Below are positions 29,880 through 35,109 of a stretch of DNA of 64,000 nucleotides, in pieces. A program made the translations under genes and the position numbers. The stretch lies in assembly GCA_017461725.1 (NCBI GenBank), contig JAFTXG010000006.1, positions 27,797-91,796 on the forward strand, given 5' to 3'. Position 1 is the first letter of the stretch; the number at the start of each line of letters is the position of its first letter. The notes beneath the pieces are model-generated. The model was not told the DNA's origin. It worked only from the letters and a program-made list of their open reading frames with translations, and searched no databases. The stretch comes from Lachnospiraceae bacterium. Its GTDB lineage: Bacteria; Bacillota; Clostridia; Lachnospirales; Lachnospiraceae.

Positions 29880-31031
29880 TTACATTTCACTATTATGAAC
29901 TTCTCGATCCCTAATTCGAACAAGATAATCTTCGAACTGCTCAGAATGATGTCTGATCAACATACTAGGACGCCCAATTTCTCTTAATGCATCCAGTATT
30001 AATTCTTTGGTCTTTTCAGTTAACTTTTTAAAGGAATCCCACTCATTTTTCAACTCAAACAGAACCTCTTTAATTAGCTTACTATCATAGAAAGTTCCAT
30101 CCTTCAATAAATAGATTGTTCTGGGGTATATTACCCGTCTATTATCGACAGGAAAAACATCATTAAAATCTATTACATCCACAATATTTTGTTCTTTTAA
30201 AATTTCATCGAAAGTTCCAGTAAAGGAACTAATTTGATTCTGTTCGCATTTTATTCCAAACAAGAATTCTGATAACCTTCTGTATCTTACAATTCCGTTC
30301 GCAACCGCTCTCTGATCTACATTTTCTATAGATGTTATAATTGCTGTTTTTAAATCTTCAAACTGTTCATTTAGACGAGCGATTTGCTTCAACTCTTCAT
30401 CGCGGTTTCTCTGTTCATATAATAATTGATGAAAATAAGCTGACCATTGTTTCTTCAATACATCTTCTATATCTTGAAGTTTCTCAAACTGGAAGAATTG
30501 ATTCCCTGTTTTTCTTAATCTTATATAATTTAGAAATTCAAAAATATACGGTGCTGTTTCACGTTTATCAATCCCAGGAAATTCTATATTATTTATCACT
30601 TCAGGCTTATTCTTATTCTTCTCATAAACTTCATGTTCAAAATAAACTTTCTTTTCTACAAAAGTATATATTGGAATATTGTTTTCTATCGCCTTCAAAA
30701 CCTCCAACTGAGTAATAGAAAACACTTTGTCCTCAGAGATAAAATCTGCCTTCTTCGATGCATCGTGTAACAAAGACAAGTCAATTTGGTCAAAAGCTTG
30801 AGGAACACTCTTTCCTCCAAATCGCGATCCAATTATAACTACCATAATATCGCAATTATTAACTTCATTGACACAGCTTGCATGTGTATGAATCCGAGGA
30901 TCATATAAAACATCCGCGTATTCACTCATCACCGGCTCATGTCCCAATGATAAAACAAAATTTCTAAGTTCAGCTCTCAAAATTGACAAATCATAACATG
31001 TAGATGAAATAAAAACTTTAACCCCTGCCAT
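29880..31031 (-). CDS. DUF4062 domain protein (TIR-like N-terminal domain) with alpha-helical C-terminal domain; candidate defence protein
   Basis: The N-terminal 100 aa fit the DUF4062 pattern (KVFISSTCYDL, CDIMVVIIGSRFG, SITQLEVLKAIENNIPIYTFV). About 33% GC, against roughly 50% in flanking genes. Confidence 0.6.
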   Translation of the reverse strand: MAGVKVFISSTCYDLSILRAELRNFVLSLGHEPVMSEYADVLYDPRIHTHASCVNEVNNCDIMVVIIGSRFGGKSVPQAFDQIDLSLLHDASKKADFISEDKVFSITQLEVLKAIENNIPIYTFVEKKVYFEHEVYEKNKNKPEVINNIEFPGIDKRETAPYIFEFLNYIRLRKTGNQFFQFEKLQDIEDVLKKQWSAYFHQLLYEQRNRDEELKQIARLNEQFEDLKTAIITSIENVDQRAVANGIVRYRRLSEFLFGIKCEQNQISSFTGTFDEILKEQNIVDVIDFNDVFPVDNRRVIYPRTIYLLKDGTFYDSKLIKEVLFELKNEWDSFKKLTEKTKELILDALREIGRPSMLIRHHSEQFEDYLVRIRDREVHNSEM

Positions 31032-31333
31032 GCCTTCATCCCTTTCGTAAAAAATATTCCACTATTTGTCACTGCAAAATGCATTTGAACGCATCAATTC
31101 ATCTTAATAAGCTAGCCAGAATCTCTTATGCCAATTCAGCCATATCATTTTGCTCTCCAGATTTTTATAGTCATGCAATTCTTTATACGCTTTGCACAAA
31201 TAATAGCCAACTGTAAATTCTCCTTTGTCCGTGACGCCATCACCTCTATGCCCACAGATTATTAATGCCAAAAATCCTCAAAATAGGTAATGATGAACGA
31301 ATTTCCAAATTCCCTATATGAGACTTTTCAAAA

Positions 31334-32707
31334 TCAACTTTGTGGTGGAATCGGTGGCATAGTATTTGCAAACAAACCCTTCAGTTCATCAACCGTCCCA
31401 GCCTTTGCCCACTGTGCCATCCCATTTTTCCATACTAAGCTATCAGCAGTAAACTGTCCACTTGCAACCATCTGTGACAACACAGACACCTCAAACGGTC
31501 CCACAGCCTGTCCACTCACAGCTACATGATATGCTACTGTCGGAATTGGAGGAGGTGTCATTCCATTCTGCATTGGCTGGTTGATACCACCCATCATGTT
31601 ATTCATAGCACCGGCGATATTCTGACCTACTGCACCGCCGACAGCCATGCTTGCCATCATAGCAGCCATATTGAATCCTGTTCCATCACTGCTACCAATA
31701 TTCACATTACCGGCTCCATTTGCTCCCATTTGCCCCAAGGCATTAGCTCCTGCAACTCCGACTTCTGCCTGCTTTTCAACTTGATATGCACCGAAATTTG
31801 CTGTGCGTGTATGCATATGCTGTGCATACTGTCCCTCTTCACGCTGAATACGCAGAGTTTCCTCGTAATTCACAGACTCTATGCGCTGTTTATCTGCAAT
31901 ATCTTTGATCCGTGCCGCTGACTCAGCCTTAACTGTTGCAGTGGTAATATCCTTGGTCACACTCATGAGCTGGCGATATCCCTCACTAGCCTTGTCAATT
32001 TCAATCGTACCAATATCAATACCGGAAACCTCAACACCAAATGTCTCCTTCAATCGTTCACTGAGATCGTACTCAACCGCATCATTGATCTGTGCAGTTT
32101 TGCTCTCAATCTGAATGATTGGAATATTGTGTGCTGCAGGAGCATTGGCAACCGCATCTTTCACATAACGGCTGACTGCATCCCTGATCTGACGCTGAAA
32201 ATCGTCCAAATCAAAATTGCTAAGTCTATGTAATTTGATGAACTCTCTGTAATCAGTAATTCCAAAGCTCACTGTGCCTCTAACTGCAACAGGTACACCA
32301 AAGTCATCAAATCTCGGATCGTAAACATCAAAAAATGGTACACCAAATTTCACTTGAATAATACGAGCTAAATTGATGAAGTAAATCTCTGCTTGAAACG
32401 GAGTTCCGCCCTCGTATGCCAAGCCGATGATGCTGGACAATACAGGGAAGTTGGCAGTTTTAATTGTCTGATCGAAAGGACCGACAATGAAATCCTGCAT
32501 CGTTCCATTTTTCTGCTTGTAAACGAAAACGGCAACCTCACCATCTTTTACTCGCAGAGAAGATCCCCAACGAATAGAGTTTTCTCTGACAGTTTCGCCC
32601 GGTTGAACGCCAAACGGATGCCACTTCCAAATCAAATATGAAGGCTCGTCACAACGAATTTCGTCCATTAATCCACCTTTACGGTTGTTTCTGTTGAATA
32701 ATGCCAT
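31334..32707 (-). CDS. SPFH/band-7 domain protein (COG4260, virion-core-protein-like) with glycine/methionine-rich linker and C-terminal DUF4339 domain
   Basis: SPFH-like N-terminal 300 aa. Low-complexity G/A/M/N-rich segment. C-terminal VAVSGQAVGPFEVSVLSQMVASGQFTADSLVWKNGMAQWAKAGTV matches the DUF4339/GYF-like fold. Start at MALFNRNN with an AAAGGGG RBS. Confidence 0.65.
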   Translation of the reverse strand: MALFNRNNRKGGLMDEIRCDEPSYLIWKWHPFGVQPGETVRENSIRWGSSLRVKDGEVAVFVYKQKNGTMQDFIVGPFDQTIKTANFPVLSSIIGLAYEGGTPFQAEIYFINLARIIQVKFGVPFFDVYDPRFDDFGVPVAVRGTVSFGITDYREFIKLHRLSNFDLDDFQRQIRDAVSRYVKDAVANAPAAHNIPIIQIESKTAQINDAVEYDLSERLKETFGVEVSGIDIGTIEIDKASEGYRQLMSVTKDITTATVKAESAARIKDIADKQRIESVNYEETLRIQREEGQYAQHMHTRTANFGAYQVEKQAEVGVAGANALGQMGANGAGNVNIGSSDGTGFNMAAMMASMAVGGAVGQNIAGAMNNMMGGINQPMQNGMTPPPIPTVAYHVAVSGQAVGPFEVSVLSQMVASGQFTADSLVWKNGMAQWAKAGTVDELKGLFANTMPPIPPQS

Positions 32708-33473: not shown

Positions 33474-34856
33474 TTAGTCATCAATTCGTATGAACATGGT
33501 ATTATATCCTCGATATTCGACTATCACCCCATATCCTTCATCGTTATCTGCGTGAAAGTGAAACGCTGATCGAGATACATCGTTATCGAAACCTTTTTCC
33601 ATGCATGCATATACATATTCATTAAAACCATCTATCGTTGTATTGCCAATGTAAACGAGCACACAAGTATCACTTGATGAGGACAAATTACCGTAATCAG
33701 ATTTAGGAATTGGTAGTAAAGATGCTATTTTAGAATCCGGCCAGATAATTTTTCTCATATCTATTTTATCAGCCACTGTAACATCCATTTTTTTGTCATA
33801 GTACCTAACTTGGATATTATATCCATCTTCGTTAAATGCATCAAACAAAGAACCATCGCTTTCACAATCAATGATAAATCCAGCGTCCTTGCACATTAGC
33901 TTATATTTCTCAAATTCATCAACAGAAATACTATAGTAATTAACTTTAAAGTAGGAAGAATTGTTAATTGCAATTTCTCCTTTCCCTTCTTCAATCTGAG
34001 GCATTAACGTACTAAGTTCTGTTTCAGGAATAACAAGAACGGAATTGCCCAATACAATGTCTTCAAAAGAGCCATTTCTAATACCCCAAGCAAGAATTGC
34101 CACAATTAAAATAATGGTATACGCAACGGCTTTGTGTTTTACTGTCCTTGCAACCCGCTCTTTCCACACTATAATTTCTTTATAAGCATCATTAGCAGTT
34201 CTATCTCCATGGAACATTATTTCTGCTTTCTGGTAAAGCTGTTCCGCTTTTGCAGACCACAACCGAGTCCAATAAGCATTTTTTTGATTCACTTTTTCTG
34301 ATGCAAGAAAAGAAATTTTAGCTTTCACAAACAGTAACGCCTCTAAAATAGATTCTCTCTCGTTTGGGAAAGGGAAATTTTCGATTAAAGACGCTTTCCG
34401 TTTTTCATGAGGAGTCAACTTGGGTGTACTATCATATCTTGCCAACGATATAACTGTGGAAATAACTTTTACGTACAAATAAATTATCAGTGGAATTCCG
34501 AAAGTAAACAGATTTAAAATCACCCATAAAATTCTTTTTGTTTTGCTCCAAGATGCCCAACCCTTCTTATTAGTCATTGGGGTGTTTGCTATAAGCCTAT
34601 CACATTCGTTAATTTCATCAATAAAATTTGCAAGTGAAGAATTTACCGTTTTGCTGTTAAACTCAAAACCACACGCAGGACAATTCGTTAAAAACGTACT
34701 GACAACCTCACCACAGCTAGGACATTTATGAATACTACCTTCAAAAACGATTTTTCTTTGGGTTGTAGTATTTGATTGCATTGTTGCGGTTCCACAAGCA
34801 ACACAAAATTTTGCTTCCTCACTCAACGCTTGTCCGCAATTAATACAAAATGCCAT
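33474..34856 (-). CDS. double zinc-ribbon membrane protein with extracytoplasmic C-terminal domain (paralog)
   Basis: Same MAFCINCG...CxxC architecture as the upstream paralog, two TM helices, extra 250-aa C-terminal domain; start at MAFCINCGQ with a GAGGAGGA RBS. Confidence 0.65.
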   Translation of the reverse strand: MAFCINCGQALSEEAKFCVACGTATMQSNTTTQRKIVFEGSIHKCPSCGEVVSTFLTNCPACGFEFNSKTVNSSLANFIDEINECDRLIANTPMTNKKGWASWSKTKRILWVILNLFTFGIPLIIYLYVKVISTVISLARYDSTPKLTPHEKRKASLIENFPFPNERESILEALLFVKAKISFLASEKVNQKNAYWTRLWSAKAEQLYQKAEIMFHGDRTANDAYKEIIVWKERVARTVKHKAVAYTIILIVAILAWGIRNGSFEDIVLGNSVLVIPETELSTLMPQIEEGKGEIAINNSSYFKVNYYSISVDEFEKYKLMCKDAGFIIDCESDGSLFDAFNEDGYNIQVRYYDKKMDVTVADKIDMRKIIWPDSKIASLLPIPKSDYGNLSSSSDTCVLVYIGNTTIDGFNEYVYACMEKGFDNDVSRSAFHFHADNDEGYGVIVEYRGYNTMFIRIDD

Positions 34857-34896
34857 TGCTCTATCCTCCTCAACAACATTGTCCAAACACTCAAAA

Positions 34897-35109
34897 TCAT
34901 TCCATATCTGCTCGCACCGCATCACAAATATCACCAATATTACAATCCAAATACTCGCATATGCGTAAAAGAACAGAAAGCGCCACTTCCTCATTCCGCC
35001 GCATTTTAGTCATAGTTCCCGTAGCAATGTTCAAATCTTTTCTCAGCGTAGCAGGTGAAATATTCTTTTCAATAAGCAAAATCCACAGCTTTTTATAGCT
35101 GATTCTCAT
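34897..35109 (-). CDS. small XRE/Cro-like HTH transcriptional regulator
   Basis: 70 aa, HTH (LNIATGTMTKMRRNEEVALSVLLRICEYL); AAGGAGAA RBS. Confidence 0.65.
   Translation of the reverse strand: MRISYKKLWILLIEKNISPATLRKDLNIATGTMTKMRRNEEVALSVLLRICEYLDCNIGDICDAVRADME

Follow-up and report, generated by a model that had tools for sequence, protein, structure and literature searches.

A low-GC island in a Lachnospiraceae genome as a probable mosaic of a mobile SPFH operon and a stand-alone DUF4062 gene

Gene content of the island and separate neighbourhoods of its two parts

Between a Cof-type HAD hydrolase gene and purL, a contig annotated at NCBI as part of a Lachnospiraceae metagenome-assembled genome (JAFTXG010000006.1) carries a five-gene island of low guanine-plus-cytosine (GC) content, which we analyzed within a stretch of 64,000 nucleotides of that contig (hereafter the window, to which all positions refer unless a locus is named). 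A check of the coordinates placed five open reading frames (ORFs) at 29880-35109, all on the minus strand; in the order in which they are read, E encodes a helix-turn-helix (HTH) regulator, D and C two paralogous zinc-ribbon membrane proteins, B an SPFH protein and A a DUF4062 protein (Table 1). A preliminary description of this DNA had proposed that SPFH, zinc-ribbon and DUF4062 genes act together as one undescribed defence system. Our results suggest instead that the island is probably a mosaic of two independently mobile modules, a four-gene SPFH operon (E-D-C-B, the cassette) and a stand-alone DUF4062 gene (A).

Much of that description was borne out at the level of single genes. Pfam hidden Markov model (HMM) searches confirmed the DUF4062, Band_7_1, DUF4339 (now GYF_2), DZR and HTH domains, and the low-GC block between Cof and purL was recovered, with values of 0.31-0.39 across A, C, D and E and 0.41-0.48 across B compared with 0.55-0.62 for the two flanking genes. 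The large genes had been described as co-directional and tightly spaced, which holds for their direction and for D, C and B (gaps of 17 bp for D-C and 14 bp for C-B, with 40 bp for E-D) but not for A: because the B-A gap is 302 bp against 14-40 bp inside E-D-C-B, gene A is not tightly packed with the other four.

When the surroundings of each part were compared across genomes, the proposed triad failed the test of neighbourhood conservation from both sides. For the gene A family we collected 112 loci with homologues ranging from 76% to about 36% identity (15 reached by look-up of the exact protein, 4 for the two closest relatives, 80 from metagenomes and 13 from the viral collection), and for the cassette we fetched 80 loci, one genome per species. 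No relative of B, C, D or E was found beside the gene A family (0/112), no neighbour gene was common to its loci, and the gene A family was found at none of the cassette loci (0/80). This last count holds for the gene A family and not for all DUF4062 proteins, because a Pfam scan of the neighbours later revealed a separate short lineage; the first phmmer screen with gene A was rejected as a full DUF4062 census, having missed the short DUF4062 proteins behind SPFH at two loci (L026 and L031). We conclude that E-D-C-B is one conserved mobile operon and that A is a separate unit.

At the junction of the two parts, the DNA match to fetched loci ends at the stop codon of B (at most about 22 nt past it) and restarts at the start codon of A, where the match is to another stand-alone gene A homologue (L009). 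The spacer of 302 bp has no DNA match to any fetched locus and its RNA fold is not significant (z=0.57). The possibility that the spacer, or the 55-aa ORF within it, is a remnant of the 186-aa gene found 3' of SPFH elsewhere was rejected by tblastn.

Table 1. Features of the island, its flanks and the slot behind the SPFH gene at other cassette loci (L numbers denote fetched loci, each with its own coordinates)
Feature	Position	Strand	Description
Gene E	34897-35109	minus	70-aa Cro/C1-type HTH_26 regulator, first cassette gene; Pfam HTH_26 E=1.4e-18
Gene D	33474-34856	minus	460 aa; two N-terminal zinc ribbons, hydrophobic segment, helical region, second hydrophobic segment, two DUF6591 repeats
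Gene C	32722-33456	minus	244-aa paralogue of D; two N-terminal zinc ribbons, helical region, two C-terminal transmembrane helices
Gene B	31334-32707	minus	457-aa SPFH (Band_7_1) protein, Gly/Met/Ala-rich linker, C-terminal GYF_2
Gene A	29880-31031	minus	383 aa; DUF4062 N-terminal, DUF8285 C-terminal
Gene A, residues 1-182	30486-31031	minus	DUF4062/NIR TIR-like predicted NADase domain
Gene A, residues 185-234	30330-30479	minus	Single long helix (stalk) between catalytic and auxiliary domains; AlphaFold2 model m42cf74b6b2a0, block pLDDT 75-89
Gene A, residues 235-383 and stop codon	29880-30329	minus	Auxiliary C-terminal domain (DUF8285), presumed sensor
Cassette/gene A junction	31032-31333	minus	302-bp spacer
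Candidate cassette promoter	35136-35170	minus	Two overlapping sigma-70-like matches upstream of gene E; 10/12 consensus positions
Cof-type HAD hydrolase	29043-29798		Flank of island; profile match
purL	35276-39091		Flank of island, beside gene E; gene calls of source contig
186-aa protein behind SPFH	L018:9387-9947; L023:9384-9944; L038:9372-9932; L047:1954-2520		Gap of 3-9 bp to SPFH
AbiH (PF14253) in slot	L029:3625-4548		2e-36
Macro-domain protein in slot	L100:9254-9778		6e-28
178-aa family in slot	L035:3242-3778; also L068, L087		Recurrent (three loci), without annotation
SWIM / PDC-S62-like protein in slot	L098:3313-4170

The SPFH cassette

Each of the four cassette genes has a recognizable domain content. 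In addition to its HTH_26 domain, gene E gave a VanU-like match of 72 bits, below the 150-bit cut-off. The candidate promoter upstream of it is a consensus match only, sigma-70-like sites not being significantly enriched in the region (26 vs 18.9 +/- 4.2 in shuffles). For gene D, a long ORF (33474-34994, 506 aa) overlaps gene E; its true start lies at the MAFCINCG codon at 34856, in agreement with the gene callers used on the source contig. Its product matched DZR (1.6e-8) and two repeats of DUF6591 (4e-40), a domain absent from the preliminary description, and that of gene C matched Zn_Ribbon_1 (5e-12) and DZR (1.4e-9). A hydropathy scan placed hydrophobic segments at residues 107-139 and 238-262 of D and hydrophobic, transmembrane segments at 173-202 and 204-232 of C. 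The 5' ends of C and D are paralogous, with 67 nt at 70% identity and about 50% amino-acid identity over some 75 residues, and form the sole notable repeat in the island; two paralogous zinc-ribbon membrane proteins starting MAFCINCG, as first described, are thus present, with two hydrophobic segments each.

The product of gene B combines Band_7_1 (4e-23) with a C-terminal GYF_2 domain (1.2e-17); the hydropathy scan found no hydrophobic segment in it, and it is predicted to be soluble, without a membrane anchor. Its GYF_2 domain matches the GYF domain of Myxococcus GltJ/AglX (PDB 7z3c) and is flanked by proline-rich motifs, PPP at residue 385 (385-387) and PPIP at 451 (451-454). PPxP motifs on the two sides of GYF_2 are kept in 62 of 78 and 65 of 78 gene B homologues, and the extreme C-terminus of the family is MPPIPP in most members. 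In bacteria, GYF domains bind proline-rich stretches, and in about 44% of the proteins that have one a zinc ribbon lies next to it (PMC11135422). The PPxP motifs may be a self-ligand for GYF_2. Docking of GYF_2 on proline-rich motifs of the zinc-ribbon partners is disfavoured, such motifs occurring in only 11 of 67 loci and in neither C nor D of the window; because the conserved motifs sit on the SPFH protein and rarely on its partners, self-association of the scaffold through GYF_2 would be favoured. As in the zinc ribbon-linker-GYF arrangement of GltJ, a zinc ribbon and GYF_2 are always encoded together in the cassette, but on separate proteins, without a gliding-motility context and with the proline-rich motifs on the SPFH protein.

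The preliminary description had recognized no described defence system in this gene combination. Searches of the five proteins against NCBIfam and PHROGs gave nothing informative beyond Pfam, and the HMMs of PADLOC-DB v2.0.0, a library that dates from 2023 and precedes the DUF4062 papers, did not match A, B, D or E, gene C alone giving a weak sub-threshold match over its transmembrane region (CARF_m9--CARF_TM, E=0.0069). Our search of the literature found no published description of the SPFH cassette, nor one of DUF8285.

By analogy of architecture, the closest studied counterpart of the cassette is SamGHI/YdjGHI of Bacillus subtilis. There, the SPFH protein (of pspA-ydjGHI, also samGHI) is soluble, with a low-complexity linker and a small C-terminal zinc finger, and is brought to the membrane only by YdjH and YdjG, the latter a membrane protein with a zinc ribbon; the complex deals with membrane stress, and its operon lies in a sigma-W context and is headed by pspA, which encodes an ESCRT-III-like client of the scaffold (PMC8581546; 10.64898/2026.02.06.704340). 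In the cassette, likewise, the gene for a soluble Band-7/SPFH protein, in which a low-complexity linker leads to a small C-terminal domain, directly follows genes for zinc-ribbon membrane proteins. Unlike samGHI, the cassette has neither pspA nor a sigma-W context and starts with HTH_26: PspA is not encoded in the window operon, nor was a PspA gene called in the 31 fetched loci with listed gene calls. Its C-terminal domain is GYF_2 and not a zinc finger, both membrane partners have zinc ribbons and one of them has DUF6591 repeats, and the cassette is horizontally mobile.

That mobility is apparent from the spread of its genes. In a scan of one genome per species, a gene B relative was found in 389 species genomes, and these relatives span Lachnospiraceae, Oscillospiraceae, Ruminococcaceae, Acutalibacteraceae, Eggerthellaceae and Treponema; the best 120 clusters of homologues are all 85-92% identical, amino-acid identity reaches 84% across bacterial families, and the distribution is patchy. 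Directly upstream of SPFH, 68 of 70 loci have a zinc-ribbon membrane gene of the C/D type, and an HTH_26 homologue is present in 40 of the 51 cassettes with at least 3 kb of upstream sequence. Two B proteins at 87-89% identity illustrate how the same core occupies unrelated places, one in the interval between RNase J and guaA and the other next to a relaxase/recombinase element. Integrases, Mob and TnpV are found near cassettes, and several cassettes have a hairpin and T-run terminator straight after SPFH. The usual GC contrast between cassette and flank is small (mean 0.40 vs 0.43, with the cassette below its flank in 43 of 65 loci), so the strong contrast in the window suggests recent acquisition by a high-GC host. 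A more distant pair of zinc-ribbon and SPFH-GYF_2 genes, with 59% identity to B, occurs on two IMG/VR contigs (L110:6001-7266 and L111:6001-7266).

Gene A, a DUF4062 and DUF8285 protein

Pfam places DUF4062 (PF13271) at residues 5-81 of gene A with 65 bits, against a gathering score of 24.7 (E=7.4e-18), and precomputed annotation from a newer Pfam release places DUF8285 (PF26934) at the C-terminus; a hydropathy scan found no hydrophobic segment. The AlphaFold2 model (predicted local distance difference test score, pLDDT, of 80) has an alpha/beta domain at residues 1-182, a long helix at 185-234 and a separate C-terminal domain. The first of these has a predicted TIR or nucleoside deoxyribosyltransferase-like alpha/beta fold, and its structural matches are a CMP hydrolase, ribosyltransferases and TIR domains, the same spectrum as that of the NIR domain. 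Its predicted catalytic glutamate is E110 (codon 30702-30704) in the motif SITQLE (S105-E110, the S-x-T-x-x-E region). Both E110 and F7 (codon 31011-31013) are invariant in 60 members of the gene A family and coincide in alignment with E87 and F11 of Evangelion Eva01, and a weak match to the solved TEP1 domain sets SVTEME over SITQLE (TEP1 E1008).

The reading of DUF4062 as a TIR-like effector, put forward in the preliminary description, holds, in line with both this model and preprints of 2026 on related proteins, and a defence role for the gene is backed by experiments in those preprints (10.64898/2026.05.01.722283, 10.64898/2026.06.25.731849, 10.64898/2026.09.04.749371). Proteins that join DUF4062 to an auxiliary (AUX) region act as single-gene, NAD+-depleting abortive-infection systems (10.64898/2026.05.01.722283, 10.64898/2026.06.25.731849). 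In Swarozyc KpSwz, helical stalks lead from a DUF4062 TIR-like domain to a winged-helix auxiliary domain; its activator is the phage portal protein, defence requires E97 and the auxiliary domain, and Swarozyc genes lie in defence islands and are horizontally transferred (10.64898/2026.05.01.722283). Eva01, on Staphylococcus aureus plasmid pMW2, needs F11, E87 and its auxiliary region, and upon infection NAD+ drops, with abortive behaviour (10.64898/2026.06.25.731849). The NIR domain is the effector of Avs2, Vulcan and Vesta, and about 20% of NIR genes are near defence genes compared with 3.9% expected (10.64898/2026.09.04.749371).

Judged from its published description, KpSwz resembles gene A in joining DUF4062 with a catalytic Glu, a stalk and an auxiliary domain in one (here predicted) polypeptide, and the two share the same kind of genomic contexts; the host of gene A is a gut anaerobe of the Lachnospiraceae and not an enterobacterium. 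Eva01 and gene A share a DUF4062 core followed by an auxiliary region, and Eva01 and gene A homologues are both found on mobile elements; the BLASTP alignment of the two covers residues 5-72 only (26% identity, E=4e-4), and a DUF4062 protein of an Enterococcus plasmid is closer to gene A (35% identity, residues 6-139). Relative to Eva01, gene A has about 30 extra residues ahead of the SxTxxE motif, its auxiliary domain is longer and unrelated, and the Q/W/E motif is not evident in the alignment. With the NIR systems it shares the catalytic domain, the spectrum of structural matches and nearby defence genes, but it has none of the STAND NTPase, HEAT repeats or alkaline-phosphatase partner of Avs2-NIR, Vulcan and Vesta. 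On its sequence and predicted fold, we file gene A as a putative new lineage of the single-gene DUF4062-AUX defence family, and we infer that it has NADase activity and a phage trigger. Because DUF8285 is confidently modelled but has no solved relative, it probably reads a phage cue other than those of the tested members.

The family to which gene A belongs is large, with proteins of about 380 aa conserved over their full length (DUF4062 plus DUF8285). A database clustered at 90% identity gave 1285 matches, and among representatives of 50%-identity clusters there were 1979 at E<=1e-3 and 169 at E<=1e-30. Some relatives retain only residues 1-210/235 with other C-termini attached, and modular swapping of sensor domains would fit this.

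Gene A family members sit in defence islands and on mobile elements, as the raw listing of their neighbours records. One homologue lies between PadR/DUF2992 genes and a serine recombinase, a second on a conjugative-like element with a type IV secretion system (T4SS) coupling protein, an ADP-ribosyltransferase toxin, an AAA_13/SMC_N ATPase, Fic and GmrSD; others adjoin HNH, RelB/ParE and a type I restriction-modification system, or tyrosine integrases and a relaxase. Among 132 neighbours of the family that were scanned together were integrases, Mrr, DRT reverse transcriptases, LmuB, PIN and prophage genes. The two closest relatives, both at 76% identity, have different partners: at L221 the gene follows a 601-aa KAP NTPase by 26 bp, beside a HEPN_LA2681 protein (148-1953, 3194-4720), and at L218 it follows an 80-aa HTH_26 gene and an 89-aa ORF (1834-2386), with Fic also in the neighbourhood. 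In either case the DUF4062-DUF8285 gene may be part of a small operon variant. Four loci (among L112-L204) have two adjacent A-like ORFs each, which may be split genes or tandem copies.

Thirteen contigs from the viral collection encode a gene A relative. Two records filed as 'Acinetobacter phage MD-2021a' (L205, CAKLQF020000019.1; and CAKLQH020000040.1) were rejected as phage carriage of a homologue; they look like bacterial chromosome contigs filed as phage, because garK, fabG, acrR and entF surround the gene.

The variable slot 3' of the SPFH gene

Among 124 genes lying within two genes of 31 cassettes, the Pfam scan found two DUF4062 matches (at L026 and L031). The protein in question has 265 aa, is encoded 33 bp behind SPFH (Pfam DUF4062 9e-29) and is 22% identical to gene A. 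Across the cluster of its 97%-identical relatives, every contig shown that reaches far enough upstream has the order HTH, zinc-ribbon, zinc-ribbon, SPFH, DUF4062, while a 71%-identical relative has no SPFH gene beside it and lies on a mobile element, in an island rich in restriction-modification genes. The contigs that hold the cassette with this short DUF4062 gene (cluster P0241, L206-L211) all stay below 10 kb (none of 66 index blocks is longer), and one of them ends beside a transposase HTH gene, which suggests repeated or mobile flanks that break assemblies.

Other cassettes hold other genes at this position (Table 1). The commonest occupants are further long zinc-ribbon membrane paralogues, in about 13 loci; AbiH, a Macro-domain protein, the 178-aa family, a SWIM/PDC-S62-like protein and the 186-aa protein also occur, as do a CHAP protein or nothing, and 47 of 64 cassettes have no recognized 3' gene. 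Slot genes are often operonic with SPFH (gaps of 3-70 bp), and elsewhere AbiH and DUF4062 proteins were also seen as stand-alone genes. The 186-aa protein, for which we found no Pfam, PADLOC or window homologue, recurs in otherwise unrelated locations, including both the RNase J/guaA and the relaxase/recombinase loci, and at L023 genes for an AAA_15/AAA_21 ATPase and for a protein of 285 aa come after it; its gene may belong to the cassette as a fifth member or be cargo. Within two genes of cassettes, PADLOC matched a type III restriction enzyme (1e-243), an ATPase-Toprim and reverse transcriptase (RT) pair, AbiLi, AriA, PDC-S01 and HEC-06.

DUF4062 is present in about 9% of genomes (10.64898/2026.09.04.749371), and by our rough estimate, which assumes random placement among a few thousand genes, it would be expected directly behind SPFH far less than once in some 80 cassettes; two independent captures were observed, so its position there is non-random. 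Most simply, this mobile operon would have at its 3' end a hotspot that gathers stand-alone defence genes. Of the co-localization with known defence islands, which the preliminary description had named as a check, the part that stands is that defence genes lie near both the gene A family and the cassette; by the raw listing of neighbours, the cassette is associated with defence islands, and the five genes are not an obligate unit. The earlier idea of a linked system is kept partly alive, because another DUF4062 lineage, AbiH and Macro landed directly behind SPFH elsewhere and defence genes are common neighbours of the cassette.

Flanks of the island and other features of the window

At the borders of the island we found no flanking repeats, tRNA or integrase. 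Close by, on the far side of the Cof gene, are a PDDEXK_2 (Rpn-type) nuclease or transposase-like gene (26316-27122, minus strand) and a plus-strand pair (27977-29074), one gene for an HTH_3 protein that has a membrane segment at its C-terminus and one for a putative lipoprotein of 155 aa. Because the GC content there is intermediate (0.43-0.50), the variable region may extend past the island as reported. Elsewhere in the window, a ZMP/ZTP riboswitch (46654-46738, minus strand, 60 bits) lies in the purine-biosynthesis region, and a Clostridiales-1 small RNA (sRNA) is found at 53438-53595 (minus strand, 99.5 bits), both above the Rfam gathering score.

Two modules and the alternatives to them

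If the island is such a mosaic, module 1 (31334-35109) would be a four-gene operon for an HTH_26 repressor, two zinc-ribbon membrane proteins and a soluble SPFH-GYF_2 scaffold. The double zinc ribbons would lie in the cytoplasm and the DUF6591 repeats of D probably outside it. By analogy with SamG, SamH and SamI, the zinc-ribbon membrane proteins would recruit the soluble SPFH protein to the membrane, where it would oligomerize, possibly via GYF_2 binding to the flanking proline-rich motifs, and would sense or stabilize a perturbed membrane; the module is passed horizontally between gut Clostridia and further anaerobes. The second module (29880-31031) would be a self-sufficient single-gene abortive-infection system of the Swarozyc/Evangelion type, with its N-terminal DUF4062/NIR TIR-like domain as the putative NADase, a helical stalk and DUF8285 as the C-terminal auxiliary sensor. 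Its protein would stay inactive until the auxiliary domain meets a phage-derived cue, and the gene would have landed in the variable slot behind SPFH, where other genomes hold other defence genes.

Several observations weigh against this account. All six contigs with the exact Cof protein also carry the island and no pre-insertion state was found among them, so that a separate acquisition of the modules is deduced and was not seen directly. The terminator scan of the 302-bp spacer found no terminator-like site, so gene A could be co-transcribed with the operon. That a second DUF4062 lineage, AbiH and Macro recur in the slot makes functional coupling possible, and not merely a landing site. For the individual modules, the likeness of the cassette to SamGHI consists of a shared Pfam family and architecture taken from literature descriptions and not of a sequence alignment, and the auxiliary domain of gene A has no detectable similarity to the Eva01 auxiliary region and no solved relative.

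We consider it unlikely, though worth weighing first among the alternatives, that the cassette is a modular defence platform, a membrane infection sensor or scaffold with an interchangeable effector encoded in the 3' slot (either DUF4062 lineage, AbiH, Macro, the 186-aa or the 178-aa protein); cassettes without a slot gene would then be incomplete or act through the membrane itself. The slot is indeed variable and often operonic, it contains AbiH, Macro and DUF4062 genes, and two DUF4062 lineages were captured independently; the cassette is mobile and highly similar across families, with integrases, Mob and TnpV nearby, and restriction, RT, AbiLi, AriA, PDC-S01 and HEC-06 genes lie within two genes of it. 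On the other hand, most cassettes have no recognized 3' gene and several terminate right after SPFH, the commonest 3' genes encode zinc-ribbon membrane paralogues and not effectors, AbiH and DUF4062 proteins are known, and were seen here, as stand-alone genes, and PADLOC returned nothing for B-E save the weak match for C. Similarly doubtful is the idea that the cassette is itself an undescribed membrane conflict module that guards the membrane against phage or bacteriocin, or licenses the effectors in its 3' slot, the window then being one such combination.

It is distinctly improbable that the cassette serves ordinary envelope stress or housekeeping as a plain SamGHI orthologue without any link to conflict, with the DUF4062 gene as a coincidental passenger. 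The parallel in architecture, the many cassettes between housekeeping genes such as RNase J and guaA, and a GC content that partly follows the host would all fit, but pspA is missing and GYF_2 stands in place of the zinc finger, cassettes are patchily distributed yet very highly identical between families and between phyla, they frequently adjoin mobile-element and defence genes, and their 3' slot has repeatedly captured defence genes. Finally, a single membrane-associated abortive-infection system of all five genes, with zinc-ribbon sensors, SPFH scaffold and DUF4062 effector, is highly improbable: its genes are co-directional in a block of low GC throughout, no terminator was found between B and A, and one other variant of the cassette has a different DUF4062 gene in its operon (33-bp gap), but neither part was found beside relatives of the other at the 112 and 80 loci, the closest relatives of A adjoin HTH/Fic or KAP NTPase/HEPN genes, the B-A gap far exceeds those within the operon, and related DUF4062-plus-auxiliary proteins act as single genes.

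For annotation, these five genes should not be entered as a single system. Gene A would carry the NAD+-depleting immune family of Swarozyc, Evangelion and NIR proteins into gut Lachnospiraceae. The SPFH cassette is the more useful lead of the two modules, having repeatedly acquired known abortive-infection genes behind its last gene, and we regard it as a moderate lead as a carrier of defence genes, possibly also as a defence module itself. If it is only a landing pad, it would be a new hotspot of defence genes in gut anaerobes, with the 186-aa, 178-aa, 83-aa and 302-aa slot genes as candidates; if it is functionally coupled to the genes in its slot, it would be the first SPFH-scaffolded defence system.

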